From Candidatus Methanoperedens sp. (GTDB lineage Archaea; Halobacteriota; Methanosarcinia; Methanosarcinales; Methanoperedenaceae), in assembly GCA_027460535.1 (NCBI GenBank), contig JAPZAR010000035.1, positions 1,414 through 33,413 of the forward strand: a DNA stretch of 32,000 nucleotides. The letters are read 5' to 3'. Position numbers and translations under genes: made by a program. Positions within the stretch are counted from its first letter, which is position 1. Each line of letters starts with the position of its first letter. Below the pieces are notes generated by a model that searched no databases, was not told the DNA's origin, and saw only the letters and a program-made list of their open reading frames with translations. Positions 1 through 32,000 of this stretch are shown piece after piece.

Positions 1-423
1 ATTTATTTCCACCAGTTTGTGCTCAATAGCAAGAAATCTGTAAATGCCTTCTGGAACATCGCTGACATTATTGATAAGCAGATATGTTTCAAGTGCATGT
101 CTTGCACCTGCAGAAGGCACATTTCTGAAAGTTGCACCAGGTGTAACGTGAACCACTCCCTGTGTAACCCACAGTAAATATGAAAGTTCTTCAATTGTCA
201 ATGGTTCCTGTGAATACTTGCGTATACTTCTTCGACCTTCAATTGCCTGTCTCAGGTCAAGGCTTCTTATTTTGATATTTTCATGCTTGGGAAGATCAAT
301 AACTGGTCTTGATGCATCATATTCCCGCTCTAATGGGGGCTGGGGCAAGTTACTGGATTGGTCAGACCTGTCAAGATACTGGAACTTCGTTTTTTCCATA
401 AATTCTTTTCCGATGGTACTCAT
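1..423 (-). CDS. SagB/ThcOx-type (nitroreductase-fold) dehydrogenase, N-terminal 141 codons only; gene runs off the left window edge
   Basis: Absent from the ORF track because it is edge-truncated. Hand translation from ATG (423-421): MSTIGKEFMEKTKFQYLDRSDQSSNLPQPPLEREYDASRPVIDLP...AIEGRRSIRKYSQEPLTIEELSYLLWVTQGV...FRNVPSAGARHALETYLL. Frame stays open to position 1. RRSxRxY and PSAGxxH motifs are typical of this fold. Confidence 0.75.
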   Translation of the reverse strand, partial: MSTIGKEFMEKTKFQYLDRSDQSSNLPQPPLEREYDASRPVIDLPKHENIKIRSLDLRQAIEGRRSIRKYSQEPLTIEELSYLLWVTQGVVHVTPGATFRNVPSAGARHALETYLLINNVSDVPEGIYRFLAIEHKLVEIN

Positions 424-548
424 CAATTTCAACTCCCTTTTATTATAGTGTAATGCTATATTTGTTTTTTGTGAGCCCGAAATATTGCTATCGAAAGATT
501 AATATGATTTAAATATATCTTACCCTGAAATATAATACAGGAATCCTT

Positions 549-920
549 ATGAGAACCCATGAAATTAACCCACCTGATGACCAGGAAATAGCGGAAATAC
601 TCATTTCCTTAGGCATGAGCAGACCTGTTGCCAGAACCCTGACATATCTTCAAAAAGTGGATGCTGCTACATCTGTTGAGCTTGAGAGAGCTACGGGATT
701 GCGCCAGCCTGAAGTCAGTATAGCCATGAAGGCGTTGAACCCACATGATTGGATAGGCGAGCGTGAAGAAAAGAAGCCGGGCAAAGGAAGACCGAATAAG
801 GTATACTCTCTTAAAGTCGGGTTTAAGGACATAATCTCCCATCTTGAAAAACAGCAGAAAAAAGCTATTAATGATGCAATGATATCGATCGAGCGGCTGA
901 AAGAGCTGGGGAAAGAATGA
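549..920 (+). CDS. winged-helix (ArsR/TrmB-like) transcriptional regulator
   Basis: 123-aa ORF. HTH-like segment VARTLTYLQKVDAATSVELERATGLRQPEVSIAMKAL is followed by a basic wing, KKPGKGRPNKVYSL. A TATA-like gatttaaatatatc lies about 40 nt upstream. Confidence 0.75.
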   Translation: MRTHEINPPDDQEIAEILISLGMSRPVARTLTYLQKVDAATSVELERATGLRQPEVSIAMKALNPHDWIGEREEKKPGKGRPNKVYSLKVGFKDIISHLEKQQKKAINDAMISIERLKELGKE

Positions 921-966
921 CCTTACAACTCAAGATCAGGATAGTACTTGCCTTATTCAAATAAAT

Positions 967-1647
967 ATGTATATCATACTACTCCAGGCAATTGTGCTCT
1001 ATCTGATTTCGGGATATCTACATCGTTCCCTGTCGTCATCAACTTTGTACGTTGTTCTTATGCTGCCGGGAACGATAATACATGAGATCAGTCACGCAAT
1101 AGTGGCTTTGCTCATGGGTGCACACATAACAAAATTCAGCGTCATGCCGTCGGGGGACACTTTAGGGCATGTAGAACATACCGCTCCAAAGATACCATTC
1201 ATTGGAAATGCTGCCATATCAGTCGCTCCGTTGATCGGATGTCCGGCAATACTGCTTCTTATAAGCAGCTACTTTGGAGTGCATTTTGATCTTCCGGCAG
1301 GTTCCTTTGACATAGTTGCAGAGACACGATTTTTGCTCGACGGAACTTTTTCTTTTATCACTGGCCTGGATTATTTGAGCTGGAAAACATATGTTTTTCT
1401 TTACCTTGCACTGACGCTGGGAGCTGGTGCAGCACCCAGCAAAACAGACATAAAAAGCATGCTTCCGGGTCTAATTATTGTTGTGGCGGTGATCTTCGCA
1501 TTGAACTACTTTGGTATCAACATTGTCTATCTGAACAATGTATTCTTCTGGTTAAGTGCAGCCCTTTCAGTTGCGATGATTCCTTTGCTGGCTGTAACTG
1601 TCATTGTTGCGATGCTAAAGTTGACAGCGGTTGTAAAATCGCCATGA
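967..1647 (+). CDS. polytopic membrane protein with HExxH zincin motif (putative M50/DUF3267-like metalloprotease)
   Basis: 226-aa ORF with several hydrophobic helices. GTIIHEISHAIVALLMG sits at the end of the first helix. Confidence 0.7.
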   Translation: MYIILLQAIVLYLISGYLHRSLSSSTLYVVLMLPGTIIHEISHAIVALLMGAHITKFSVMPSGDTLGHVEHTAPKIPFIGNAAISVAPLIGCPAILLLISSYFGVHFDLPAGSFDIVAETRFLLDGTFSFITGLDYLSWKTYVFLYLALTLGAGAAPSKTDIKSMLPGLIIVVAVIFALNYFGINIVYLNNVFFWLSAALSVAMIPLLAVTVIVAMLKLTAVVKSP

Positions 1648-1755
1648 TCTTATTCATGAAAAAAACAAGGACAACAAAGGGCATATCTTGAGTCGCGCCA
1701 CAAGCGGCCCTTCGAAATCAGTTTTATACCCTGCCAGTGTATAGGGTGTTAACAT

Positions 1756-2271
1756 ATGGAAGTTAAGATCATCAGAAGCCCGGACAGAAAAAAGACCATT
1801 CAGGCAAAGATGGCCGGAGAGACTCTTTTATTATATCTCCCTCTTGGAATGCACCGTGAAGAGGAGAGAAAGCTCATAGAGAAAATGAAACAAAAAATGG
1901 AGAAAAAGAATCTTAAGACCAGGATCAATAAAGATGATCAACTTAAGAAAAGATTTGATGAGTTCAACAGTAAATATTTCCAGGGTAGGCTCAGGGTCAA
2001 CTCCATCGAATTTGTTACAAACCAGAAAAAGAACAACGGAAGCTGCTCACCCAACAGAGGCACCATTAGAATATCTCACAGGCTCCTTGACATGCCAGGA
2101 TGGGTCCTTGACTATGTGATCATGCATGAGATGACTCACCTTGTGTATCCGGATCATTCAAGAGCCTTCTGGGAAAAGGTTGGAGAATATAAATATACAG
2201 AAAGGGCAAGAGGTTTCCTGATAGCTAAAGGCATGGAGGGGGAAGAGAATGGAAGCAATGGATGTGATTGA
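1756..2271 (+). CDS. YgjP/DUF45-type (M48-like) zinc metallopeptidase
   Basis: 171 aa. N-terminal VKIIRSPDRKKTIQAKM, then NNGSCSPNRGTIRISHRLL and YVIMHEMTHLVYPDHSRAFWEKV (HExxH plus downstream H/FW), as in the DUF45 family. Confidence 0.8.
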   Translation: MEVKIIRSPDRKKTIQAKMAGETLLLYLPLGMHREEERKLIEKMKQKMEKKNLKTRINKDDQLKKRFDEFNSKYFQGRLRVNSIEFVTNQKKNNGSCSPNRGTIRISHRLLDMPGWVLDYVIMHEMTHLVYPDHSRAFWEKVGEYKYTERARGFLIAKGMEGEENGSNGCD

Positions 2272-2548
2272 AGGAATCATGGTGCGTGCGTGAGGATGGG
2301 TTCTCATGAACACAGATTGCCTGTATCTGCGCTTATCGGCGTCATGCCTATTGAGAAAGTCACATTTTCATGCATAGTTTTTGATCAAAACTTGTGAAAT
2401 GTAATTTAGATATGCTGATTTTTAACAGGTGCGCCGGACTTTAATTAGCGTGATTAAATAAAATCAGAACGGCCCGTATAAAAGCACCTCCAAGGTCAAA
2501 ATAAGATGATTATATTTAGTTGAAAAACAAAGAAAAGATGCGTGTAAT

Positions 2549-2767
2549 ATGTCTGAAGCTGCCGCAGCAGAAACCCCAAAAATAATGGAGAAGGTATTCA
2601 ACATACTGAAAAGGGAGCTCAGCGCAGAAGAGTATCTAATATATCTTCAGGCGATAACTCCGAGAATAGGAGACGCAACAGCTGAACTCAGGGACATTAC
2701 TAAAAAAATGAGTCTTGAAGATGTGCTTCGCAAGGCAAAGCGAATTGAAAAAACAATGAAAGTGTAG
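2549..2767 (+). CDS. small hypothetical protein (72 aa, charged/helical)
   Basis: ATG-initiated ORF in an otherwise gene-free 600-nt gap. No recognisable motif. Confidence 0.45.
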   Translation: MSEAAAAETPKIMEKVFNILKRELSAEEYLIYLQAITPRIGDATAELRDITKKMSLEDVLRKAKRIEKTMKV

Positions 2768-2874
2768 AAATGGGTTAGTAGCAGAGGCAGACGCTCCACT
2801 GGTAGACAAATGGCGCGCCACCTGCGGTATCCTTCGGAACGATCCACCTCTCCCGCCAGTGCAGGTATTTTTGA

Positions 2875-4074
2875 CTAATACAACCGTCTGCGCCTGTTAT
2901 GCTGCTGCTGCCCTCTTCTCACAATGGGCTTATTCATCCTTCTCTCAGGGTTCCTTATCACAGCCTTCTCAAGGACAGGCAATATCTCTTCCTTGATCTC
3001 CACATCATTTTCCTTCAATACCTGTGAAAAGTTATCATAATCCTTGCTTGAAAGAATATTTATGGCCTTTCCTTCTGCTCCTGCTCTTGCAGTCCTTCCG
3101 ATCCTGTGGATGTACTGCTTGCTTTCACGTGGAATATCGTAATTGTAAACATGGGATACACCCTGGATATCAAGTCCCCTTGCAGCCACATCAGTGCATA
3201 CAAGGATACAGGATTTTCCGGAATGGAATCGATCCATCACATTGTTCCTTTTTCCCTGTGGCAATCCGCCATGAATGGCCATTGCATCTATTTCTGCAAA
3301 TCTCAAGTTTTTTGCAACTTTATCGGTATTTCGTTTCGTGTTGCAGAATACCATAACAAGGCGTGAGTTTTCATGCTTCAGCAGATGCACAAGCAATGAA
3401 AACTTTAGATCCTCGCCGACATCATAATAAGTCTGAATCAGTTTTTTGGGGTCGACATAGGAATCAACGGAAACCTGGAGCGGTTTTTTCATGTGCCTCT
3501 GGGCGAGCCTGACAACGTCTTTTGTGATGGTTGCCGAGAAAAGAAGGGTCTGCCTGTCCTGGGGGCATTTTCTGATTATTTTCTCCACGTCATCCTTGAA
3601 GCCCATATCGAACATCCGGTCTGCTTCATCAAGAACAAGGGTTTTCACTTTGCCCAATCGAATAGAATTTCTTGCGATGTGATCAAGTATCCTGCCGGGT
3701 GTTCCCACCACAACATCTGCGGTCCGCAATCCCTGGATTTGCGGATTGATCCCCACACCTCCATAGACCGCAATGATCGCTAAAGGTTTGTACTTTGAGA
3801 ATTTCGCCAGAGCCTTTGAAACCTGCTCGGCCAGTTCTCTTGTGGGAGTCAGGACCAGAGCCTGGATACCATTTCCCCTCTCGGAACTTTTTATTATACC
3901 GGAAGCAAATGCAAGCGTCTTTCCGGAGCCTGTTGCAGACCCGGCTATAACGTCTTTCCCTGCAAGTATCAGAGGGATCGATTTTTCCTGTATTTCACTG
4001 GGATTCTCAAACTTCTCATCTTTTATTGATTTCAAAACGGGCTCACTTATGCCCAGATCTTTAAAACTTTCCAT
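2875..4074 (-). CDS. DEAD-box ATP-dependent RNA helicase
   Basis: Q-motif region FENPSEIQ, motif I AGSATGSGKT, VLDEADRM (DEAD), SAT, HRIGRTARAG, and a basic C-tail. I place the start at the internal ATG 4074 (MESFKDLGI...) rather than the track start at 4140. Confidence 0.93.
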   Translation of the reverse strand: MESFKDLGISEPVLKSIKDEKFENPSEIQEKSIPLILAGKDVIAGSATGSGKTLAFASGIIKSSERGNGIQALVLTPTRELAEQVSKALAKFSKYKPLAIIAVYGGVGINPQIQGLRTADVVVGTPGRILDHIARNSIRLGKVKTLVLDEADRMFDMGFKDDVEKIIRKCPQDRQTLLFSATITKDVVRLAQRHMKKPLQVSVDSYVDPKKLIQTYYDVGEDLKFSLLVHLLKHENSRLVMVFCNTKRNTDKVAKNLRFAEIDAMAIHGGLPQGKRNNVMDRFHSGKSCILVCTDVAARGLDIQGVSHVYNYDIPRESKQYIHRIGRTARAGAEGKAINILSSKDYDNFSQVLKENDVEIKEEILPVLEKAVIRNPERRMNKPIVRRGQQQHNRRRRLY

Positions 4075-4247
4075 ATTATTTTTTTGAAAAAGCGTGATGC
4101 TGTTTCTTATTAACCTCTTTAATTTATATATTAGGAACAATTAAGAGCTATAAGCACAACTTTATAAAAGTCTAGATTAATTTACTGCTTAAAAGTTTAT
4201 TCACCTATTGCTAAACAACTATTATTTATAGTTTAGCAGGACTAATC

Positions 4248-4361
4248 ATGAAACTCAATGTAGATAAAGACATTGTCTGTTTAACCTGGATATGTAGCCT
4301 TAAACCCAAGACCGCTGCAACGTATAGATATGGCATACATCGATTTTGTGAGTACATTTAA
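4248..4361 (+). pseudogene. possible remnant of a tyrosine-recombinase N-terminal (SAM-like) domain
   Basis: 37-codon ORF MKLNVDKDIVCLTWICSLKPKTAATYRYGIHRFCEYI. The S/T-x-x-T-x-x-x-Y...F..Y pattern resembles integrase N-termini. A second short fragment follows at 4382-4453. Weak. Confidence 0.2.
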
Positions 4362-4453
4362 ACAAACATAACATAGTTTCAATGGCGACAGAGGAATACT
4401 TAGACCTTCCAACGATGAAACTCAAAGATATCCGCAAAGCCGTTAATATCTGA

Positions 4454-5089
4454 TTAAGAAACACTGGTAACGTAAATTATTTCGCAAGAACCGTCTCTCG
4501 TATCATATCTTGTTTGGCTTGTTTTCCACATCCATTTACCATCACCAACAATATATGTTTTGGTCACATCAACTAAGTAGCCCTTAATAGTTACTACATC
4601 ATTTGTTTTAATACTTTTAATTGCATTTGCGATAGAATCATTTGCTGGAATGATATGGTTATTTGACATATGGGATGTTATGTCATCCGATACCGTGCCA
4701 GTGTATCGATATGAGCATATTCTACCGCCCTGACTGTAAACAATATTGCTATCGTTTACTATTTTACCCCATACAACGCATAAATCCACAGGCGATATTC
4801 CAAGTTTGTCATGGTTATAATTGGCTGTGCTTACTACCTTTGCGGATATTTCATAATTTGCTACTGGGATTATTGTGTATGCTTCATAAATATCACTTAT
4901 CGTAAACGTTTTTCCGCTATATGAAGTTTGGATAGGTTCTCCTCCTAAATTACCTGCATTGCCTGAATAAGTTCTTGTCTCTAAATTATTGGCAAAAGCA
5001 CCTTCCATGTAAAGAATTGCTGTTGATGATACAAGAATAAACGTAAAAATTATACCAAAGATTATTATCTTGAACCTTAGATTAGACAT
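4454..5089 (-). CDS. hypothetical protein with N-terminal membrane anchor/signal (orphan, AT-rich)
   Basis: ORF with hydrophobic N-terminus MSNLRFKIIIFGIIFTFILVSSTAIL. Start set at ATG 5089 (track uses GTG 5110). No family recognised. C-terminal DTRDGSCEIIYV. Confidence 0.65.
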   Translation of the reverse strand: MSNLRFKIIIFGIIFTFILVSSTAILYMEGAFANNLETRTYSGNAGNLGGEPIQTSYSGKTFTISDIYEAYTIIPVANYEISAKVVSTANYNHDKLGISPVDLCVVWGKIVNDSNIVYSQGGRICSYRYTGTVSDDITSHMSNNHIIPANDSIANAIKSIKTNDVVTIKGYLVDVTKTYIVGDGKWMWKTSQTRYDTRDGSCEIIYVTSVS

Positions 5090-5291
5090 TATAGTATCTA
5101 CTACTATCACTGAGGATATATATTGTCATCGTTATTACCATTGCCATTTGATAAAGCAGCATTAGACCACTTTCCACCTCTTCCATCTTTCATTCCGTTA
5201 CCAGTTGAATTTCTTAGGTTGTAGGGTGAAGTGACAACAATATCAAGGCCAAAGTTTTTAATACACAATGACATAAATTATTATATATAAA

Positions 5292-7391
5292 TTGAAAGCA
5301 AATCATGCGTCTGCGTTTAAAACTAAATTCACAGAGGGGGCCAAAACCATAGTCAATAAAATCCGCAAAAGGGACGGAAGGATTGTAGAATTCGACAGAT
5401 CAAAGATAGCAAATGCGGTTTTCAAGGCTTTCATCGCCACAAAAACCAAAGATGGGAAGAGAGCAGAGGACATAGCGAACCAGGTAGTGAAAATCCTTGA
5501 GGAAAGGATTCCGGGAATACCCGGGGTCGAGGATGTCCAGGACATAGTCGAAGAAATCTTGATCAAAAACGGCTACACCGGCGTCGCCAAGGCCTACATC
5601 CTGTACAGAGAGAAGCGCGCCCAGATAAGGAAAGCCAAGGAATTCCTCGGTGTCAGGGATGAGCTGAAATTGAGCATTAATGCAGTCAGGGTTCTCAAGA
5701 AGCGATACCTGTTAAAAGATGAGAACGGGAATGTAATGGAGACACCTCTGCAACTTTTCCGGCGTATCGCTAAGGCCATTGCCCTTGACCCTGAATTGGA
5801 AGATGAATTCCTGAACATGCTGATAAATCTTGATTTTCTCCCCAATACACCCACGCTCATGAACGCTGGCACGGACCTGGGGCAGCTCTCTGCCTGCTTT
5901 GTCATTCCTGTTGAGGACTCGCTAGTGAGCATTTTTGATGCTGTTAAGAGCATGGCGCTCATCCAGCAATCAGGCGGCGGGACAGGTTTCTCGTTTTCAC
6001 GGCTCCGGCCGGCCGGGGATATCGTGAAATCCACGAAAGGGGTGGCCTCAGGACCGGTTTCTTTCATGCGTGTTTTCGACACGACCACGGATATAATAAA
6101 ACAGGGAGGCAAAAGGCGCGGCGCCAATATGGGAATACTCAGGGCGGATCATCCTGATATCATCGAGTTCATAACAGCGAAAACGAGGGAAGGATTCCTT
6201 TCGAATTTCAATATATCTGTAGCCGTGGATGATAAGTTCATGAACGCTCTTGCGGAGGACGGCATGTATGAGTTAATAAACCCCAGGAACAGTGAGGTGG
6301 TAAAGAAAGTGAGAGCAAGGGAAATATGGAATCTGATAATTACAATGGCCTGGAGGACAGGCGATCCCGGTGTCGTTTTCATCGATGAGATAAATCGTCA
6401 TAATCCCACGCCTCATATCGGGGAGATGGAGAGCACGAATCCTTGCGGTGAACAACCATTATTGCCCTATGAATCCTGCAATCTGGGGTCGATCAACCTT
6501 GCTAAAATGGTCAAGGATGGCGCCATCGACTGGGAAAAGCTTGAGAAGATCACGAATATCGCGGTAAAGTTCCTTGACAATGTGATAGACGTCAATAGAT
6601 ACCCGCTTCAGCAGACGGAAGAGATCACGCGGGCGAACAGGAAGATTGGCCTTGGCGTCATGGGTTTTGCCGATATGCTGGTGCAACTCAGGATACCCTA
6701 CGATTCTGAAGAGGCCCTGAAAACCGGGGAAGATGTAATGAGGTTCATCCATGAAAAATCCCATGCCGCTTCTGAAAGACTTGCGAATGAGCGTGGTGCC
6801 TTTCCCAATTTCCCGGGCAGCATCTATAAGGAGGCCATTCGTAACTCTACAGTGACCACGATAGCGCCCACAGGTACTATTAGCATAATCGCAGGCTGCT
6901 CAAGCGGCATCGAGCCTCTTTTTGCGGTTTCTTTTGTCCGGAATGTGATGGAAGGCACAAAACTCCTTGAAGTGAATCCTTATTTTGAAGCTGTGGCAAA
7001 GGAGAAGGGATTTTACAGCGAGGGGCTAATGATGAAGATAGCGAGAACAGGGACGCTTGCGGATATCAATGAAGTGCCAGGGGACGTGAAGCGCGTGTTC
7101 GTTACGGCTTTTGATATTGCGCCCGAGTGGCATGTCAGGATGCAGGCTGTTTTCCAGAAATATTCTGATAACGCCGTTTCCAAGACCATAAATTTCCCGC
7201 ATGACGTTGACATAAAGGAAGTGGAAAAAGCATACACCCTCGCTTATCAATTAAAGTGTAAGGGAATAACGGTTTACAGGTACGGCAGTAAGGAGCAGCA
7301 GGTGCTGTACCTTGGGGATTCTATTGACAAGTTCGTGTCCGCCGATGAAGAATATGCCGGTGGCTGTCCTGCACCTGTGTGCCCGGTATAG
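5292..7391 (+). CDS. nrdJ: adenosylcobalamin-dependent (class II) ribonucleotide reductase with N-terminal ATP-cone
   Basis: ATP-cone KIRKRDGRIVEFDRSKIANAV, active-site region TNPCGEQPLLPYESCNLGSINL, C-terminal Cys pair CPAPVCPV. The only in-frame canonical start is TTG at 5292. Confidence 0.93.
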   Translation: MKANHASAFKTKFTEGAKTIVNKIRKRDGRIVEFDRSKIANAVFKAFIATKTKDGKRAEDIANQVVKILEERIPGIPGVEDVQDIVEEILIKNGYTGVAKAYILYREKRAQIRKAKEFLGVRDELKLSINAVRVLKKRYLLKDENGNVMETPLQLFRRIAKAIALDPELEDEFLNMLINLDFLPNTPTLMNAGTDLGQLSACFVIPVEDSLVSIFDAVKSMALIQQSGGGTGFSFSRLRPAGDIVKSTKGVASGPVSFMRVFDTTTDIIKQGGKRRGANMGILRADHPDIIEFITAKTREGFLSNFNISVAVDDKFMNALAEDGMYELINPRNSEVVKKVRAREIWNLIITMAWRTGDPGVVFIDEINRHNPTPHIGEMESTNPCGEQPLLPYESCNLGSINLAKMVKDGAIDWEKLEKITNIAVKFLDNVIDVNRYPLQQTEEITRANRKIGLGVMGFADMLVQLRIPYDSEEALKTGEDVMRFIHEKSHAASERLANERGAFPNFPGSIYKEAIRNSTVTTIAPTGTISIIAGCSSGIEPLFAVSFVRNVMEGTKLLEVNPYFEAVAKEKGFYSEGLMMKIARTGTLADINEVPGDVKRVFVTAFDIAPEWHVRMQAVFQKYSDNAVSKTINFPHDVDIKEVEKAYTLAYQLKCKGITVYRYGSKEQQVLYLGDSIDKFVSADEEYAGGCPAPVCPV

Positions 7392-7397
7392 GTGGCA

Positions 7398-8426
7398 TTA
7401 ATAATTCTTGATCTTTACTTCATCTACAAGGAATGGCGGATAAAAAATGCCGTTCTCCGTGATAATGGCATTCACATTTTCCATGGGTGTGGCATCAAAT
7501 GCCGGATTATAAACTTCCACATCCAGCGGCGCTATCTGGTGTGTTCCAAAATACCTTAACTCATCAGGTTTTCGAAGTTCGATCTCGATCTCATCCTCAA
7601 GGTGCTCAAAATCGAACGTGGATACTGGTGCAGCAACATAAAACGGTATCCCGTGCTCTTTTGCGACGACGGAATGGGTATACGTTCCTATCTTATTGAA
7701 CACAGCATCCTGGGTGATCCTGTCCGCGCCCACAATGACCTTGTCCACCATTCCTTTTCGCATCACATGGCCCGACATGCTGTCGGTGATAAGCGTGACA
7801 GGTATCTTATCTTCCATCAACTCCCACGTCGTGATGCGGCTGCCCTGGTTCAGGGGTCGCGTCTCGCATGAGATGACTCTGATATCTTTTCCCTGCTCGC
7901 GGGCCGATCTGATGACCCCGAGGGCAGTACCCCAGTCCACGCAGGCAAGCCTGCCCGCATTGCAGTGTGTCATTACAGTATCCCCGTCCTCAAGAAGAGA
8001 AGCTCCGTGTTCACCCATTTGCTTGTTCTTTTCCACATCCTCATCGGCTATTGCTTTTGCTTCATCAAGGGCGAACATTTTTGCCTCTTTAATATTCCTG
8101 GCATCCTCGACCGCCCTGATAACGCGTTTTACTCCCCAGGAGAGATTCACGGCAGTTGGTCTCGTTCCTGTGATAGTTTTTCCGGCAGCTTCGAGGTCAT
8201 TCATTAATCCTTCCAATGAAGATGCGCTGCTTTTATGCGCAGCGAGCGCGATACCGAACCCACCTGCAGCTCCGAGAGCTGGAGCACCTCTTATGCGCAG
8301 CTTGATAATTGCCTCGCATAAAGAATCGATACTATTGCATTCGATCACCAAGTACTCCGCAGGGAGAAGTGTCTGGTCAATCATGACAATATTGCTTTTC
8401 TTATCATCCCAGTCTATTGTCCTCAT
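7398..8426 (-). CDS. mtnA: eIF-2B alpha/beta/delta family isomerase, methylthioribose-1-phosphate isomerase type
   Basis: 342 aa. N-terminus IDWDDKKSNIVMIDQTLLPAEY...IKLRIRGAPALGAAGGFGIALAA and ...VIVGADRI... are typical of MtnA / aIF-2B-like proteins. Confidence 0.85.
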   Translation of the reverse strand: MRTIDWDDKKSNIVMIDQTLLPAEYLVIECNSIDSLCEAIIKLRIRGAPALGAAGGFGIALAAHKSSASSLEGLMNDLEAAGKTITGTRPTAVNLSWGVKRVIRAVEDARNIKEAKMFALDEAKAIADEDVEKNKQMGEHGASLLEDGDTVMTHCNAGRLACVDWGTALGVIRSAREQGKDIRVISCETRPLNQGSRITTWELMEDKIPVTLITDSMSGHVMRKGMVDKVIVGADRITQDAVFNKIGTYTHSVVAKEHGIPFYVAAPVSTFDFEHLEDEIEIELRKPDELRYFGTHQIAPLDVEVYNPAFDATPMENVNAIITENGIFYPPFLVDEVKIKNY

Positions 8427-8493
8427 TGAAATCGGGTTTATATCGAGCCGTCAGATATTTAAGTACTGCCATTATGTTTAACCTCAGAGGAGC

Positions 8494-11163
8494 ATGGTAA
8501 ATAACGAAATTCGGATACTGAACGATCAACCGATAGACCATGAAACATTTTTTAATTTTGACGACTATTCGGATGCTCTGGCAGGAATAATCCTCCATGA
8601 GGATACGAACACACCGCTCGTCATAGGTATATTTGGCGATTGGGGAAGCGGGAAAACAAGCCTGATGAAAACTTTGAAGAAGAAGATCGAAAATGTGAAA
8701 GATGGCCACTCTGCCCAGACTATCTGGTTCAATGCATGGAAATATGATAAAGAGGATGTTATCTCGCGCGCTCTTCTGACTCGAATACTGCAGGAACTAG
8801 AGACTAAGGGCGAAAAAAAGGACGAGAAAATCTTGAATCGAAGACTAAAGGATCTTCAGAGAAGTCTCTACAAGGACGTTTATCGCGAAGATCCCGGCTC
8901 TTTGACTTTTGATCTGGGCAAAGCTAGCAAAGGGGTTCTTAAGCTTGGCCTTTCAACGGTTCCCATCATAGGGGAAGGATTGGCGAAATTATTTGAAAAA
9001 GGTGTTGATAAAGATGCAATTATAGAAATAGCAGAATCATTACATCATGAGAAAATCATCACAAATATAGAAAAAATTGGAGAGCTTGAGCAATTTCAGT
9101 CAACCTTCCGGGAGATAATCAGGGATCATTATATCCAACATAATAAGAGAGCAGTAGTATTTATTGATGACCTGGATCGATGTGTTCCTGATAAAGCAAT
9201 AGAAGTTATGGAAGCCATCAAGCTGTTTCTGGATGTAGAGGGCTGTATCTTTATTTTAGGCATAGACAGGAATGTCATCCGCGAGGGAGTACGAATCAAA
9301 TATAAAGATTTCACATTAGGAGGCATAAAAGTTCCGATCAATGGTGAAGAATATCTGGAAAAGATAATTCAACTGAGTTTTATGCTCCCGCCTATAATGG
9401 AAAATAAGTTAAAAGAATTTATAGATGATCTTGATCAGAAAAAATCGTATAAAGAGTATCACGATATGATTATAAATGGGATCGGAAGGAATCCGCGTAA
9501 GATCAAACGCTTTATCAATGCCATAAGATTCCAGCAAAACCTGGCTGAAATAATTCCTGAAATGAAGGATATTGTCAAAGAGGATATCAAGCAAACATTT
9601 GATGCGCTGCTGATAGAATGGCAAATTATAAGCAGCAGCAGCAATTCTGATTTTGAAAATTTCAGAAAGGAGGTTATTAAAAATCCGGGTCTTCTGATCA
9701 AGAGCCATGATTATGTGGAGAGCCTGAAGTCCGGGAAAAAAGACGAACCTCCCAAAGAGCTAAACCCCTTTTGGAATGATTCAATTAAAGAATTGATATG
9801 GGTATTCCCATATCCAGGGACTCTAAAAGAAGGTGATACAGATATCATCAAAAAGGTAACTCATCTTAGCAATGTAACAGAAACAAAAACAACAATAGAA
9901 ACAGGTGTGGAAGAAACCTGGACACTTGAGAAAGTTAAGGAAGCAATAAAGAAAGGTATGAGTTTGGAAGGGAAAGATTTAAGCGGGCTTTCCTTAAATA
10001 AAATGAATCTAAATGGGGCGAATCTTTCGGGTGCAAAACTTATTAAAACAGACCTTTCTGAAGCAAAATTGGTAGAAGCAAATATCGTGCATACAGATCT
10101 TTCAGGTGCGATACTTATTGGAACAGATCTTTCTAAAGCCAGTCTTGCATATGCGGTTCTTATCCGGGCAAATCTTTCAGAAGCGATTCTGAAAAACGCA
10201 AAACTTCCAAATGCAGATTTCAGTTATGCTATCCTGAATGGAGCAAATCTCACTGAGGCGTACCTAAGCCTTTCTGATTTCTCTTATTCAAATCTTTCAA
10301 AAGCTACACTCACTGGGACCCTCGGTGGTGAAAATAAATTCATAGGGGCTAATTTATCGGGTGCTGATCTTTCTAATGCAGACCTAACAGACGCGAAACT
10401 TTCAGATGCAAACCTTTCTGGATTAGACCTCACTAATGTACCCCTCAGTGGAGCAGATCTTTCTAATGCAAACCTCATTAAAACTAAGCTCCCTGAAGAC
10501 CTCACTCGTACAATCCTAACCGGAGCAGACCTCACGGGAGCCAAACTCTCCGGTTCAACACTCTATGGAGACCTTTCAAGAATAGTACTTAACAATGCAG
10601 AGCTTAATGATATAAAATTCACTGAAATACAAACCCTTTCCGGAGCGAAAATTAAAGGAGCGAAAATAGGCAAATCTGATCTCTCTGGGTTGGATCTTTC
10701 AAATGTGGATTTCTCCAATACAGATCTAATTGAAACTAACCTGAATAAAACAAACCTCTCCAAAGCCATCCTGATAGACGCCAAACTATTCAATGCAAAA
10801 CTTCAACATGCAAACCTTTCAAATGCAAACCTTTCTAATGCGAAGCTCTCCGGATCAGACTTTTATTATGCAGATCTTTCCAATGCATCTCTTATTGGTG
10901 CAGATATATCCGGAACAGACCTGTCGTATGCAACATTGATAAAAATAAAAACCACACGAATTAAAGTCAATGAAAATACAAATGCAAGAGATGTGATTTT
11001 GGTTATGGATGAAGATCCCCAGGATGAAGCCAAAATAAAGAGAGCTCTGGATGATATAGATAAGGGATTAAGGGATATAATTATCAAACAAAATGAGCGT
11101 TACCGCAATATCTATTCTGGTTCAGAACCTGCCTCTGCCATTCCTGGTAAAGCAAAAAAATGA
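8494..11163 (+). CDS. KAP-family P-loop NTPase fused to a very long C-terminal pentapeptide-repeat domain
   Basis: 889 aa. GIFGDWGSGKTSL (Walker A), FNAWKYD and VVFIDDLDRC (Walker B) are KAP hallmarks. Residues ~493-815 are continuous A(D/N)LxX pentapeptides. Confidence 0.88.
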   Translation: MVNNEIRILNDQPIDHETFFNFDDYSDALAGIILHEDTNTPLVIGIFGDWGSGKTSLMKTLKKKIENVKDGHSAQTIWFNAWKYDKEDVISRALLTRILQELETKGEKKDEKILNRRLKDLQRSLYKDVYREDPGSLTFDLGKASKGVLKLGLSTVPIIGEGLAKLFEKGVDKDAIIEIAESLHHEKIITNIEKIGELEQFQSTFREIIRDHYIQHNKRAVVFIDDLDRCVPDKAIEVMEAIKLFLDVEGCIFILGIDRNVIREGVRIKYKDFTLGGIKVPINGEEYLEKIIQLSFMLPPIMENKLKEFIDDLDQKKSYKEYHDMIINGIGRNPRKIKRFINAIRFQQNLAEIIPEMKDIVKEDIKQTFDALLIEWQIISSSSNSDFENFRKEVIKNPGLLIKSHDYVESLKSGKKDEPPKELNPFWNDSIKELIWVFPYPGTLKEGDTDIIKKVTHLSNVTETKTTIETGVEETWTLEKVKEAIKKGMSLEGKDLSGLSLNKMNLNGANLSGAKLIKTDLSEAKLVEANIVHTDLSGAILIGTDLSKASLAYAVLIRANLSEAILKNAKLPNADFSYAILNGANLTEAYLSLSDFSYSNLSKATLTGTLGGENKFIGANLSGADLSNADLTDAKLSDANLSGLDLTNVPLSGADLSNANLIKTKLPEDLTRTILTGADLTGAKLSGSTLYGDLSRIVLNNAELNDIKFTEIQTLSGAKIKGAKIGKSDLSGLDLSNVDFSNTDLIETNLNKTNLSKAILIDAKLFNAKLQHANLSNANLSNAKLSGSDFYYADLSNASLIGADISGTDLSYATLIKIKTTRIKVNENTNARDVILVMDEDPQDEAKIKRALDDIDKGLRDIIIKQNERYRNIYSGSEPASAIPGKAKK
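9970..10940 (+). repeat. 15-nt-periodic coding repeat tract (pentapeptide repeats) inside the KAP gene
   Basis: Reiterated gcagatctttc(t/c)aatgca-type units encoding ...ANLSGADLSNADLTDAKLSDANLSG... Boundaries are approximate. Confidence 0.85.
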
Positions 11164-29556: not shown

Positions 29557-30396
29557 ATGAGCGGATTGATCGATTTTATATACAGGAATTATATTGATGG
29601 GATAATCAACGATACAAGTTATAATCATTTTGACATGATCACATATATCATTATTCTTTTCGTGGGCGTATATGCTGCACTAAAATTATTGAATAAATTG
29701 AAAATTAAAGTTGATGAGGAGTTTGTCATTGCTACAATTCCCTATATTTTCATGGGTTCAGTATTTCGGGTAATCGAGGATGCAAATTTACTAAAGCCGC
29801 CCGTCAAATATTTTTTTATCACGCCGCTTATTTACTTCGTAATCTTTGCAATATGTTTTGGGTCTCTTCTCCTCACAAGATACCTTGAAAAGCTCAAGAA
29901 AATAAGAAATTATATTCGTGTATACGCAATTGCCGGGGTCACATTATCGTTAGTGGGAGTTGCTATCCTCGTTTATTATAGTTCTTTTAATTGGAATCTC
30001 GCTATTCTTGTATATAGTCTTGTGCCAGCTATAGGATTGACCGAATTGGTCAGAAGAATATCTCCGGCGATCGGTATGACTTATCTTCGAAGCAGGATGT
30101 ATTCATTTGCAATATTTTCATTTCTGCTCGATTCGCTCACTACATATATTGGCGTAGATCTGCTGGGCTACACTAACAAACATCCTTTTAGTTCCTTCCT
30201 CACTTCCTTTTTTGGAACTGGAGCCATACTGGTTCCTCTGTCCCTGATTTTGGTACTTGTGATTGTCTTGTTGCTTGAAAAGGATTCCAAGGAAGATAAA
30301 AAACAGGATGAAAAGTATATGATGACATTGACCTTGATAGTTCTTGGTTTCTCCATGGGTGCAAGGAATTTGCTGGCAATGGTTTTCAGGGTTTAG
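29557..30396 (+). CDS. DUF63-like archaeal polytopic membrane protein
   Basis: ATG lies 2 nt after the upstream stop. About 7 TM helices, internal KDSKEDKKQDEK loop, C-terminal GFSMGARNLLAMVFRV. DUF63 assignment is from memory only. Confidence 0.62.
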   Translation: MSGLIDFIYRNYIDGIINDTSYNHFDMITYIIILFVGVYAALKLLNKLKIKVDEEFVIATIPYIFMGSVFRVIEDANLLKPPVKYFFITPLIYFVIFAICFGSLLLTRYLEKLKKIRNYIRVYAIAGVTLSLVGVAILVYYSSFNWNLAILVYSLVPAIGLTELVRRISPAIGMTYLRSRMYSFAIFSFLLDSLTTYIGVDLLGYTNKHPFSSFLTSFFGTGAILVPLSLILVLVIVLLLEKDSKEDKKQDEKYMMTLTLIVLGFSMGARNLLAMVFRV

Positions 30397-30461
30397 CCGG
30401 AGGACACGGCGCGGGGCAGGCGGTGGGGGGCGGAGAGAGCGGAGTAAATGGTGATCGCTTC

Positions 30462-30467
30462 TTTTTT
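30462..30467 (+). terminator. T6 run, candidate archaeal oligo-T terminator for the artA/DUF63 operon
   Basis: cttcTTTTTTatgg lies about 66 nt after the DUF63 stop. A shorter run is conserved in copy 2 (30781-30785). Confidence 0.3.
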
Positions 30468-30485
30468 ATGGTGGGAGTTCGAAGA

Positions 30486-30574
30486 ATAGAACGCGGATGA
30501 CGCGGATTTAACGGATACGCACGGATAATTTTAATCCGTGTCAATCAGTGTTATCCGTGCGCTCCGTGTTCTAT
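30486..30574 (+). ncRNA. candidate structured RNA / recombination hairpin, copy 1 (89-nt imperfect palindrome)
   Basis: Hand fold: 12-bp basal helix (30486-30497 / 30563-30574), 7-bp helix (30501-30507 / 30553-30559), AAC/GTT after a TT bulge, and a 7-bp apical helix (30520-30526 / 30534-30540) with loop AATTTTA. All arm mismatches are G opposite T on the + strand. Confidence 0.35.
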
Positions 30575-30720
30575 CACATCTTATATCACTTCAAAAATAT
30601 TAATATCTTGGCGCCGATATGTTCCCGAAGCAGCCTCACGGCCTATGGGACAGCGGGTTTACTCAGAATCAACAGCGAACTCCGGTTGAGAGCTATCCGA
30701 TGAGGGATAGTGCTGGCGAT

Positions 30721-30956
30721 GGCGCGGGGCAGGCGGCGGCGATGGGGGGCGGGGAGAGCGGAGTAAATGGTGATAGCTTCTTTTTATGGTGAAAGGAGCG
30801 GTTCAAAGAATAGAACGCGGATGACGCGGATTTAACGGATACGCACGGATAATTTTAATCTGTGTCAATCTGTGTTATCCGTGCGCTCCGTGTTCTATCA
30901 CATCTTATATCACTTCAAAAATATTAATCTCGCGGCGCCGATATGTTCCCGAAGCA
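30721..30956 (+). repeat. non-coding repeat unit, copy 2
   Basis: See copy 1. The hairpin offset between copies is 324 nt. Confidence 0.9.
30810..30898 (+). ncRNA. candidate structured RNA / recombination hairpin, copy 2
   Basis: Same fold as copy 1. Two right-arm substitutions (30861 T for C, 30871 T for A) give G-U pairs on the + strand. Confidence 0.35.
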
Positions 30957-30983
30957 ACTACCCCGCCAGCAGATTCCCCACAA

Positions 30984-31016
30984 CCGCCTCCATCAACTTC
31001 TCGCTGTCCGCCTGCG
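30984..31016. repeat. 33-nt direct repeat, left copy (ccgcctccatcaacttctcgctgtccgcctgcg)
   Basis: 30/33 identical to 31837-31869. Its right end forms half of the palindrome CCTGCG-ag-CGCAGG (31011-31024). Confidence 0.85.
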
Positions 31017-31080
31017 AGCGCAGGAGTACGGCTCAAGCTTATCGCAGAGGGGCATGAGCTGCTCTGGCGGCGATGCGGTG

Positions 31081-31416
31081 CTATCTAGCTGCATACATTA
31101 CTTTACCTTTTCTTGCGAAGTCAGTAATAAGAGAATTACCGCTTTCAAATTCTTCAGAAGTGAGGGTGATAATATCAAGAGGCACTCTGAATTTTTTTAT
31201 GGTGTTAATCTCTGCTTCCTTCGTCAATCTTGCCCTTTCAAAAATATCTTTGTTCCGAAAATCCGGAGAAATTATCAGAATATCCACATCGCTATCTAAA
31301 GTCGCTTTTCCCGTGCTGTGCGACCCGAATAGAATTATCTTTGAAACTTTCAATCCTTTTTCTTTCAAACAATTCTCAAAGAATTTAATGGCTTCTACTA
31401 TTTTGTCTTTAACCAT
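31081..31416 (-). CDS. minimal nucleotidyltransferase (MNT, NTP_transf_2) of a HEPN/MNT toxin-antitoxin pair
   Basis: 111 aa. IILFGSHSTGKATLDSDVDILII (GS...DxD). Confidence 0.9.
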   Translation of the reverse strand: MVKDKIVEAIKFFENCLKEKGLKVSKIILFGSHSTGKATLDSDVDILIISPDFRNKDIFERARLTKEAEINTIKKFRVPLDIITLTSEEFESGNSLITDFARKGKVMYAAR

Positions 31417-31769
31417 TTTAATAACTCCTTCCCTTTTTCAAGTATCTTTTCTGTTGTATTCATATTGTATTCGTTCAGCATTCTTTGCAGATTATCAGGA
31501 TATCGAGTGAGAACGCTTACTCTGTTCAGAGTGAAGACAAAATCATACATATCTTCAGGTAATTCCAGATCGATAATTTCAATAAGATAAAGCAGATTGT
31601 GAGTTTTGGGTGGCGCTTCTTTATTTTTTTGAATGATCAGACCCTTGAGCGCTTTTTCTATAGATAAATGGCACATGAAGACAGTATAAAAATAACGTTC
31701 TCCTTTGAACATGAATTCTGCGGTTTCCATGTCATAATCAGCTTGTTTGAACCATTCATCTTTATCCAT
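31398..31769 (-). CDS. HEPN-domain protein of a HEPN/MNT toxin-antitoxin pair
   Basis: 123 aa. WFKQADYDMETAEFMF...CHLSIEKALKGL...PKTHNLLYL...LTRYPD. 19-nt overlap with the MNT gene. Confidence 0.88.
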   Translation of the reverse strand: MDKDEWFKQADYDMETAEFMFKGERYFYTVFMCHLSIEKALKGLIIQKNKEAPPKTHNLLYLIEIIDLELPEDMYDFVFTLNRVSVLTRYPDNLQRMLNEYNMNTTEKILEKGKELLKWLKTK

Positions 31770-31836
31770 GTATTTCTCAGGATTGTAATTGTTTTAATTG
31801 CTTATTTGCTTTTCCCGTTACTCAACCAGCATCCTC

Positions 31837-31869
31837 CCGCCTCCATCAATCTCTCGCTGTTCGCCTGCG
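31837..31869. repeat. 33-nt direct repeat, right copy (ccgcctccatcaatctctcgctgttcgcctgcg)
   Basis: 30/33 identical to 30984-31016. Looser similarity (ccagca..tcc..) extends about 12 nt further left in both copies. Confidence 0.85.
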
Positions 31870-32000
31870 GTTGGGCGACAGTCCTACTATGGATTCAAGA
31901 TGGTGGGCAAGAGGAATAGGGTGATGGGGTTGCCGGAAATGCAGGGCTATGACCCTAGTTTGAATGAAGACCCTGTTCACTTGGAGAAATATATATCACT

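Follow-up and report, generated by a model that had tools for sequence, protein, structure and literature searches.

What are the direct repeats that enclose a small toxin-antitoxin (TA) operon near the right end of a 32,000-nucleotide stretch of Candidatus Methanoperedens sp. (contig JAPZAR010000035.1, hereafter the window), and do they mark a gene cassette that moves? The operon pairs a gene for a HEPN-domain protein with one for a minimal nucleotidyltransferase (MNT). An earlier note, made from the letters of the window alone, took it to be a cassette inserted site-specifically into a tandem array of repeat units. The repeat is the 3' end of hsdS, the specificity gene of type I restriction-modification (R-M) systems, an origin that had gone unrecognized in that note. 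This conserved coding block is the repeated boundary of more than 10 types of TA cassette, in arrays that differ between related archaea, and the layout suggests gene collecting of an integron-like kind in which no integrase is evident. Few prokaryotic genes are as mobile as TA modules, and outside integrons and pdif modules we know of little that explains how tiny modules of this kind, which have no integrase, move.

Origin of the direct repeat

The 33-mer CCGCCTCCATCAACTTCTCGCTGTCCGCCTGCG, whose left copy is at 30984–31016, recurs at 31837–31869 with three mismatches. This 30/33 match, from which the earlier note had started, is confirmed and lies beyond chance, because the two copies are the only matches in the 32 kb and none of 100 dinucleotide shuffles contained any. 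The array, as the note had thought possible, continues past the edge of the window. Locus L001, a 47-kb contig of the Candidatus Methanoperedens assembly GCA_027460495.1 that is 99.9% identical to the window except that it has one repeat unit fewer, reaches ~10 kb beyond the right edge. It carries four co-oriented copies of the 33-mer, the two additional ones bracketing a DUF2683/ParE TA pair, and beyond this ParE cassette lies a type I R-M operon.

Alignment of the copies revealed that the repeat is not a bare 33-mer but a module of ~125 nt, here called the tail, of which the 33-mers are the best-conserved core. Three of the four copies in L001 have this length, and the right copy in the window is cut short where a C-type repeat unit starts. 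The 820 nt between the 33-mers do contain the HEPN and MNT genes and a leader of ~48 nt, as had been proposed, but the left repeat does not end at 31016 and runs on to 31084. A left junction had been placed at the centre of the palindrome CCTGCG-ag-CGCAGG; that point is merely the truncation of the right copy, where the C-type unit begins, and the palindrome itself lacks conservation, with CATGCG..CGCAGG as the consensus over 68 distinct tails.

On the evidence of sequence comparison, the module corresponds to the last ~40 codons and the stop codon of a Methanoperedens hsdS gene, read on the minus strand. Its translation on that strand gives RRIVDRVDQLMSLCDKLEAGLMRSQADSERLMEAVV, and the tail encodes the conserved coiled-coil helix at the C terminus of HsdS (...EQRRIVAKVDQLMSLCDKLEAGLLRSQADSEKLMEAVVGRMLAG*). 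Searched against 5.8 billion proteins, the tail peptide matched 42 clusters, all of 32–78 aa and mostly from Candidatus Methanoperedens; several are named restriction endonuclease subunit S, one has PF01420, and several keep PLPPLAEQxRIV upstream. In BLASTP the peptide is 89% identical (E 2e-19) to residues 521–555 of the 561-aa HsdS of locus L017, a protein of a PF01420-positive family. It is also 64% identical to residues 237–261 of the same protein, in the central conserved region, and the part that matches there is the first half of the tail. A PDB sequence search gave the HsdS structures 3okg and 5ybb as sole matches, at both conserved helices, although these matches are weak (E about 5). 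Pfam gave no match on the open reading frames (ORFs) of the tails, which are too short.

The repeats in the window are hsdS-derived and are not hsdS genes. Intact genes have target recognition domains (TRDs), conserved regions and PF01420, with conserved regions CR1 and CR2 ~850 nt apart; of the window copies, one is a 3' fragment with frameshifts and the other a remnant of 52 nt. The left tail is a pseudogene with deletions of 5 nt and 1 nt, so that its translation, ...QLMPLCDKLE / LLRSQADSEKLMEAVVGNLLAG*, is split over two frames; it aligns to the 3' ends of the intact hsdS genes in L017 and L027. The right tail, which keeps only the last third, reads CGCAGGCGAACAGCGAGAGATTGATGGAGGCGG, then has a 7-nt deletion, and continues GAGGATGCTGGTTGAGTAA. 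Positions of these features are given in Table 1.

An intact relative is in L027 (M. nitroreducens Mnv1), in which an hsdS gene of 574 aa ends in the conserved block and is followed by the leader, HEPN, MNT and an orphan tail. This HEPN-MNT cassette is 88% identical to that of the window, and the bases of the window's right 33-mer are genuine C-terminal codons of the 574-aa HsdS, directly upstream of HEPN-MNT. The order in L017 is hsdM, hsdS and a derivative with MNT only, and in L026 it is tail, MNT-only derivative and tail. The hsdS gene that neighbours the array in L001 was considered as the source of the repeat and was ruled out by its unrelated C terminus and its opposite orientation.

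Table 1. Features at the right end of the window, with positions counted from its first nucleotide
Feature	Positions	Strand	Remarks
A-type repeat unit 1 (~320 nt)	30400–30720		'gaacgcggatgacgcggat...' core and terminal 'tatatcacttcaaaaatattaat..ggcgccgatatgttcccgaagc' module; direct repeat families D1/D2/D6
A-type repeat unit 2	30721–30957		91–93% identical to unit 1; meets the stop codon of the left tail at its right end
Left hsdS tail (c1), full-length orphan copy	30958–31084	minus	Holds the left 33-mer; TAG stop at 30958–30960; abuts the MNT stop
MNT, 111 aa, predicted antitoxin	31081–31416	minus	PF01909 (E 3.7e-14), PF18765
HEPN-domain protein, 123 aa, predicted toxin partner	31398–31769	minus	PF05168 (E 8.7e-23)
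Cassette leader (~48 nt)	31770–31817	minus	AACGGGAAAAGCAAATAAGCAATTAAAACAATTACAATCCTGAGAAATAC before ATG; kept wherever the cassette occurs
Right hsdS tail (c2), 5'-truncated 52-nt remnant	31818–31869	minus	Holds the right 33-mer; TAA stop at 31818–31820
C-type repeat unit	31870–32000		Starts exactly at the truncation of the right tail; runs off the window

Cassettes between tails

The HEPN-MNT operon is, as the earlier note had it, a discrete cassette between direct repeats. Its two genes are adjacent on the same strand with an overlap of 19 nt, the arrangement of type VII HEPN-MNT modules, and MNT has the GSX10DXD motif (GSHSTGKATLDSDVD at residue 31). A motif search of the 123-aa HEPN protein for the Rx4-6H RNase motif found no R.{4,6}H match; membership of the HEPN domain family stands, but RNase toxicity is hypothetical. 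The stop codon of MNT falls within the first bases of the left tail, at a stop-to-tail distance of -2 nt. The leader precedes HEPN in L027 and L005, but in L026 and L017, where HEPN has been deleted, it precedes MNT, and it probably carries the cassette's own promoter. In these two derivatives (L026, 5426–5758; L017, 2742–3074) the deletion extends exactly from the ATG of HEPN to the ATG of MNT and the leader is retained, which fits the usual pattern in which the toxin is lost and the antitoxin kept. MNT remnants fused into a Fic cassette were seen in L019 (1526–1951) and L028.

The genome and metagenome collections, scanned once each with a degenerate core of the 33-mer, returned 14 and 44 stretches, respectively. 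All named stretches are from Methanoperedens or Methanoperedenaceae, except one 1.5-kb contig labelled Flavobacteriales, and no tail was found in viral contigs in the scan. The exception, L024 (CAJPFH010000134.1, 1484 nt, 'Flavobacteriales bacterium'), contains two tails; the 45 nt upstream and the first 35 nt are identical to a tail of Methanoperedens BLZ2 (L023), and the contig is probably mis-binned. A profile of the tail found 132 copies at 61 Methanoperedenaceae loci, with a median spacing of 820 nt and up to five copies per contig, the contigs being short. The 33-mer is thus present across related genomes and not restricted to the window, and, where the earlier note had asked whether its other copies bound accessory genes, they bound many other TA cassettes.

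Tails are co-oriented in every locus, with both strands used in 0 of the 61. Only 5 of the 70 segments between tails have open frames that resemble TRDs; the others are mostly co-oriented TA pairs. The pairs include DUF2683 with ParE, DUF2281 with PemK, a MazE-like protein with PIN (two kinds) and a 57-aa protein with PIN. A second ParE type, HEPN with MNT or MNT alone, reverse-oriented Fic and PIN with UPF0175, and a larger HEAT-repeat gene are also found. The last of these encodes, in L015, a protein of 857 aa between two tails (3687–6260 as oriented; 1744–4314, minus, on the record strand), and the census holds four related copies; therefore the cargo is not limited to TA pairs. In ~40 cases the toxin stop codon lies between -24 and +23 nt from the tail. 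Some arrays begin at an intact hsdS, and hsdS, hsdM and hsdR are the recurrent neighbours of the arrays. Some tails are 5'-truncated at varied points, with starts at model positions 22–77.

The edges of the tail are sharp. At the 5' edge, more than 10 unrelated upstream sequences, including the 3' ends of toxin genes, reverse-oriented cassettes and true TRD coding sequence ending in ...PPLxEQ, join it within ~8 nt before CCGCATCGTCGCC. At the 3' edge, similarity among ~25 downstream contexts is lost within a few bases past GGATGCTGGCGG, where the HsdS frame ends. The narrow 5' junction and the divergence after the frame end therefore define the tail as a discrete module. Its two ends form imperfect inverted repeats, GCCGCATCGTCGCC and GGGGAGGATGCTGGC, that match at 12/14 positions with one bulged T, a marginally unusual value that 4 of 300 shuffles reached. 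In the window they lie at approximately 31062–31075 and 30965–30979, exactly where the similarity between cassettes begins and ends. The terminal stem gave no covariation (5 compensatory cells versus 4–19 in slid controls).

Comparison of the genomes reveals gain, loss and rearrangement of cassettes, and the breakpoints coincide with tails. L012 differs from L001 by exactly one additional unit, composed of a 57-aa/PIN cassette and a tail, at the tail that follows ParE, so that the two form an occupied/empty pair. L014, L019 and L028 contain the same cassettes in different orders. A block of tail, PIN and tail is 92% identical in L026 and L012, but its upstream neighbour is MNT in the former and ParE in the latter. 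The window cassette itself is preceded by a C-type unit in the window and L001, by a tail with a different truncation after AT-rich DNA in L005 and by an intact hsdS in L027, three upstream contexts in all. Among 76 full tails there are 32 upstream and 32 downstream flank clusters. L014 also has two tandem reverse-oriented Fic cassettes in one array (108–632 and 750–1449), consistent with unequal crossing-over between tails.

Recombination between tails and the alternatives

It is likely that recombination between the hsdS-tail repeats is how cassettes accumulate and are shuffled, the tails serving as portable recombination sites. We infer a route in which one cassette together with one tail loops out and re-enters at another tail, that is, Campbell-type excision and reintegration; alternatively, units could be gained and lost by unequal crossing-over. 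An incoming unit would supply a replacement tail, so that the 3' end of a live hsdS would be kept intact and an orphan tail left downstream. Repeated insertions would then build arrays in which the last tail retains the native downstream flank, and such a flank is seen for the last copies c1, c3 of L001, t3 of L012 and t3 of L013. The array in the window would be an orphan whose hsdS body is gone. As the driving activity we prefer general homologous recombination to a site-specific enzyme, because no recombinase is linked to the tails. Neither the large ORFs of the window (housekeeping genes, a KAP NTPase and an AIPR gene) nor the called genes of L001, L012 and L013, 20 kb each, include an integrase or resolvase, so that the recombinase for which the earlier note had proposed a search of the neighbourhood was not found there. 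Nor does a recombinase recur among 39 large ORFs near tails at 12 loci (the best 25 of 81 families).

Several points weigh against this reading. Homologous recombination would account for the shuffling but not for how each TA type first came to abut the 5' edge of the tail with a precision of ~8 nt; this precision hints at a site-specific step and keeps a trans-acting recombinase as a live rival. No empty site for the HEPN-MNT cassette was found by way of its DUF63 neighbour, the contigs of relatives breaking in the A-type units; the search for empty sites suggested by the earlier note succeeded elsewhere, in the occupied/empty pair and the reordered cassettes, but not for this cassette. No excised circle or read-level heterogeneity was seen, and no tail-bearing contig of 7 kb or less has a terminal overlap, although assemblies cannot reveal rare circles. 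Tails that have a common downstream flank are more identical by 0.03–0.09 in all six bins, and those with a common upstream flank by 0.06 in the first bin alone, a difference that is weak and not diagnostic. Nearly all of the sequences are metagenome assemblies, in which repeats can cause chimeras; against this concern, exact-protein look-ups found the same HEPN-MNT pair on 7–10 independent contigs.

The rival that takes the precise junctions at face value holds that the tails are sites of a dedicated recombinase encoded elsewhere (tvr/TvrR-like, Xer-like or new), which would cut at the tail edges and make the arrays a true cassette-capture system. The narrowness of the 5' junction (~8 nt across more than 10 unrelated cassette types), the sharp 3' boundary and the inverted repeats at the tail ends speak for it, as does the precedent of the tvr tyrosine recombinase, which uses repeats encoded by hsdS. 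We nevertheless regard it as unlikely. The searches described above found no such enzyme, the junction shifts by several nucleotides where one phosphodiester bond would be expected, and the terminal stem lacks covariation. Moreover, the sharp edges coincide with natural limits of hsdS conservation, namely the boundary between TRD and conserved region and the stop codon. In its boldest form, which is speculative and to which we give a similarly low likelihood, the tail would be the dedicated site of an unrecognized archaeal gene-cassette platform, an integron analogue anchored on the 3' end of hsdS. This platform would capture, stack and shuffle promoter-bearing TA and defence cassettes, with a precise step at the inverted-repeat ends, an unlinked or novel recombinase and restoration of hsdS on insertion. 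Of the earlier proposal of a site-specific, cassette-style insertion, the discrete cassette between direct repeats holds, the insertion into the repeat-unit array does not, and a site-specific mechanism is not demonstrated.

Three further readings fit the data poorly. If the repeats were attC sites recombined by IntI, as in a classical integron or a cluster of attC sites lacking an integron-integrase (CALIN), small co-oriented and mostly TA cassettes, each ending in a repeat directly after the stop codon, would be expected, and these are what the arrays contain; archaeal integrons and CALINs do exist, with TA genes as their commonest annotated cargo (PMC9668308). However, neither IntI nor another tyrosine recombinase is nearby in the window or in the three 20-kb loci (the absence of IntI is not decisive alone, because CALINs lack it by definition), and the tails do not fold as attC-like hairpins: fold z-scores of 26 tails on both strands range from -3.1 to +2.1 and centre near 0, and Rfam gave no match on 30300–32000 at E values up to 1. 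The repeat is protein-coding hsdS sequence, conserved at the level of sequence and codons rather than structure, its consensus shows no evident R''/R' cores of the GTTRRRY type, and Ghaly et al. do not mention Methanoperedens. This reading is largely refuted, and the array does not qualify as an integron by definition; the parallel that the earlier note drew with integron cassettes and small mobile TA modules is apt for topology but does not extend to membership. Somewhat less remote, but still very unlikely, is that the arrays are static relics, hsdS genes with embedded TA genes that decayed in place, the repeats taking no part in the movement of cassettes. Toxins, HEPN among them, are a familiar component of R-M operons (PMC3710099, PMC3632139), and the tails are pseudogenized, some of them with variable 5' truncations. 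On the other hand, no TRD remnants lie between toxin stops and tails, TRD-like segments between tails are rare, many cassette types have the same junction, the same cassette occurs in differing contexts and orders, and presence or absence of one unit falls exactly at a tail.

Finally, the earlier note had viewed the operon as a cassette with 33-nt target duplications that split the second of a tandem array of ~320-nt units, so that unit 2 would be unit 1 interrupted. A-type units do lie to the left of the cassette and a related-looking C-type unit to the right, and the two types have a common terminal module of 38 nt (84% identity, E 3e-5). The proposal rested, however, on a loose alignment of 31870–31915 with 30638–30722 that is not significant, an equal or better score being reached in 758 of 1000 dinucleotide shuffles; the note had itself named this outcome as grounds for giving that part up, and it fails accordingly. 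The left repeat is of ~125 nt rather than 33 nt, and in L027 the cassette follows an intact hsdS with neither A-type nor C-type units. The junction of A-type unit and tail is, moreover, the same after the tails of L001 (c3), L012 and L013, which are array ends in three genomes. Because this junction is conserved in other loci and species, the units are the customary flank of array ends and not an interrupted target. The interrupted-unit interpretation is contradicted, and there is hardly any chance that it is right. Two other kinds of element were also considered. A tRNA scan of the window found none, so the locus is not a tRNA-targeting island, and an element of the miniature inverted-repeat transposable element or insertion sequence type was rejected, because the cassettes contain no transposase and are flanked by direct repeats of ~125 nt that derive from a gene.

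Recombination between tails most closely resembles that at the tvr locus of Streptococcus pneumoniae, a phase-variable type I R-M system (SpnIV; Kwun et al. 2018). There, circles with a Phd/Doc TA pair are excised and reintegrated under the guidance of direct repeats in hsdS, and the long terminal repeats are also the substrate of a route that does not depend on the recombinase (PMC6265443). Both systems have direct repeats from hsdS conserved regions (in tvr mid-protein and terminal) that bound movable segments with a TA pair inside. In tvr, however, the movable segments carry TRDs and serve to switch specificity, and the TvrR tyrosine recombinase is encoded inside the locus. The cargo of the Methanoperedens arrays is nearly all TA pairs, with the few TRD-like segments noted above; up to five or more cassettes are chained, many arrays have no live hsdS, no TvrR-type tyrosine recombinase was found within or beside them, and the host is an archaeon. 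Chromosomal integrons, such as the Vibrio cholerae superintegron with its VCR repeats and the archaeal examples (PMC9668308), likewise have small co-oriented cassettes with a repeat of ~120 nt and high sequence similarity right after each ORF, TA cassettes with their own promoters, and differences in order and content between strains. They differ in having IntI, attI and hairpin attC sites, whereas here the repeat is a coding fragment of a defence gene and the head, if present, is hsdS and not intI. Inverting hsdS shufflons (SpnD39III/ivr; REBASE survey, PMC7394358) also use hsdS conserved-region repeats as recombination substrates, but these are inverted, TRDs are swapped by inversion and an invertase is linked; here 132 of 132 tails are direct within their locus and the cargo is TA genes.

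Two further systems offer parallels. Islands that target tRNA and tmRNA genes insert at the 3' end of the gene and bring a replacement end, so that the target stays intact, a displaced partial copy is left at the far end and serial insertions give tandem arrays with att-like copies in series, the last of which retains the native downstream flank. Such islands are kilobases long and encode their own integrase, in contrast to tail units of 0.6–1.1 kb with a TA pair alone. The pdif modules of Acinetobacter are small, lack an integrase, often carry TA (or resistance) genes and are bounded by XerC/D sites in varying contexts. Those sites are Xer sites of 28 bp, arranged as inverted pairs on plasmids, whereas the tails are direct hsdS fragments of ~125 nt on archaeal chromosomes.

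TA genes within R-M loci (PMC3710099, PMC3632139), recombination between hsdS repeats (PMC6265443, PMC7394358) and TA cassettes in integrons, including archaeal ones (PMC9668308), are already known. Full-text searches turned up no description, for Methanoperedens or elsewhere, of arrays in which duplicated 3' ends of hsdS bound TA cassettes, which is no proof of novelty. If recombination between tails moves the cassettes, it would provide a concrete route for the spread of TA modules and for the growth of defence and TA islands beside R-M systems. It would extend excision and reintegration at hsdS repeats, known from one pneumococcal locus, to the Archaea and to cargo other than TRDs, and would account for the many short ORFs annotated as 'restriction endonuclease subunit S' or hypothetical in Methanoperedens genomes. 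On the practical side, the repeats break metagenome assemblies of an environmentally important methane oxidizer.

Repeat units and neighbouring genes

The A-type units lie between the DUF63 gene and the tail. The window, L002, L003 and L008 have two of them and L001 and L004 have one, so that copy number differs among samples that are otherwise 99.9% identical; the assemblies of close relatives are interrupted within the unit. The core of the unit (gaacgcggatgacgcggatttaacggatacgcacggataa...atccgtg..., at 30470–30580 and 30790–30900 in the window) is hairpin-rich, occurs in either orientation and often directly follows a tail. It begins 0–120 nt after a tail in 10 of 22 matches at 12 tail-bearing loci. 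Loci with the core include L015, L017, L039, L043, L048, L061 and L066. It may represent a miniature inverted-repeat element, a terminator or a small RNA; it had no match in Rfam and yields spurious ORFs, such as that at 30386–30544 on the minus strand (...IIRAYPLNPRHPRSI...).

The C-type units (~190 nt) are present in five copies in L001, each starting with GTTGGGCG directly after ..CC(G/A)CCTGCG. They start immediately after the bases that end the 33-mer, and a short piece of the tail may have been co-amplified with them. The body of the unit was found in L001 and L012 alone and is thus confined to this species. In L001 the units at 7906–8520 and 9517–9912 flank a reverse-oriented PemK/antitoxin pair.

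The R-M operon of L001 is complete and occupies 362–6007, with hsdR as two ORFs, hsdS, an ORF of 277 aa and hsdM, followed by a helix-turn-helix-MNT/HEPN pair. It is divergent from the array and ~640 nt from its first tail, and the hsdS of the operon ends in a tail that is not related to the repeated one. The window contains other genes of defence type, namely an AIPR gene (abortive-infection-like, PF10592) at 20596–21789 on the minus strand and a KAP-family P-loop NTPase gene at 8494–11163 on the plus strand, the product of which has 889 aa and is fused to pentapeptide repeats.

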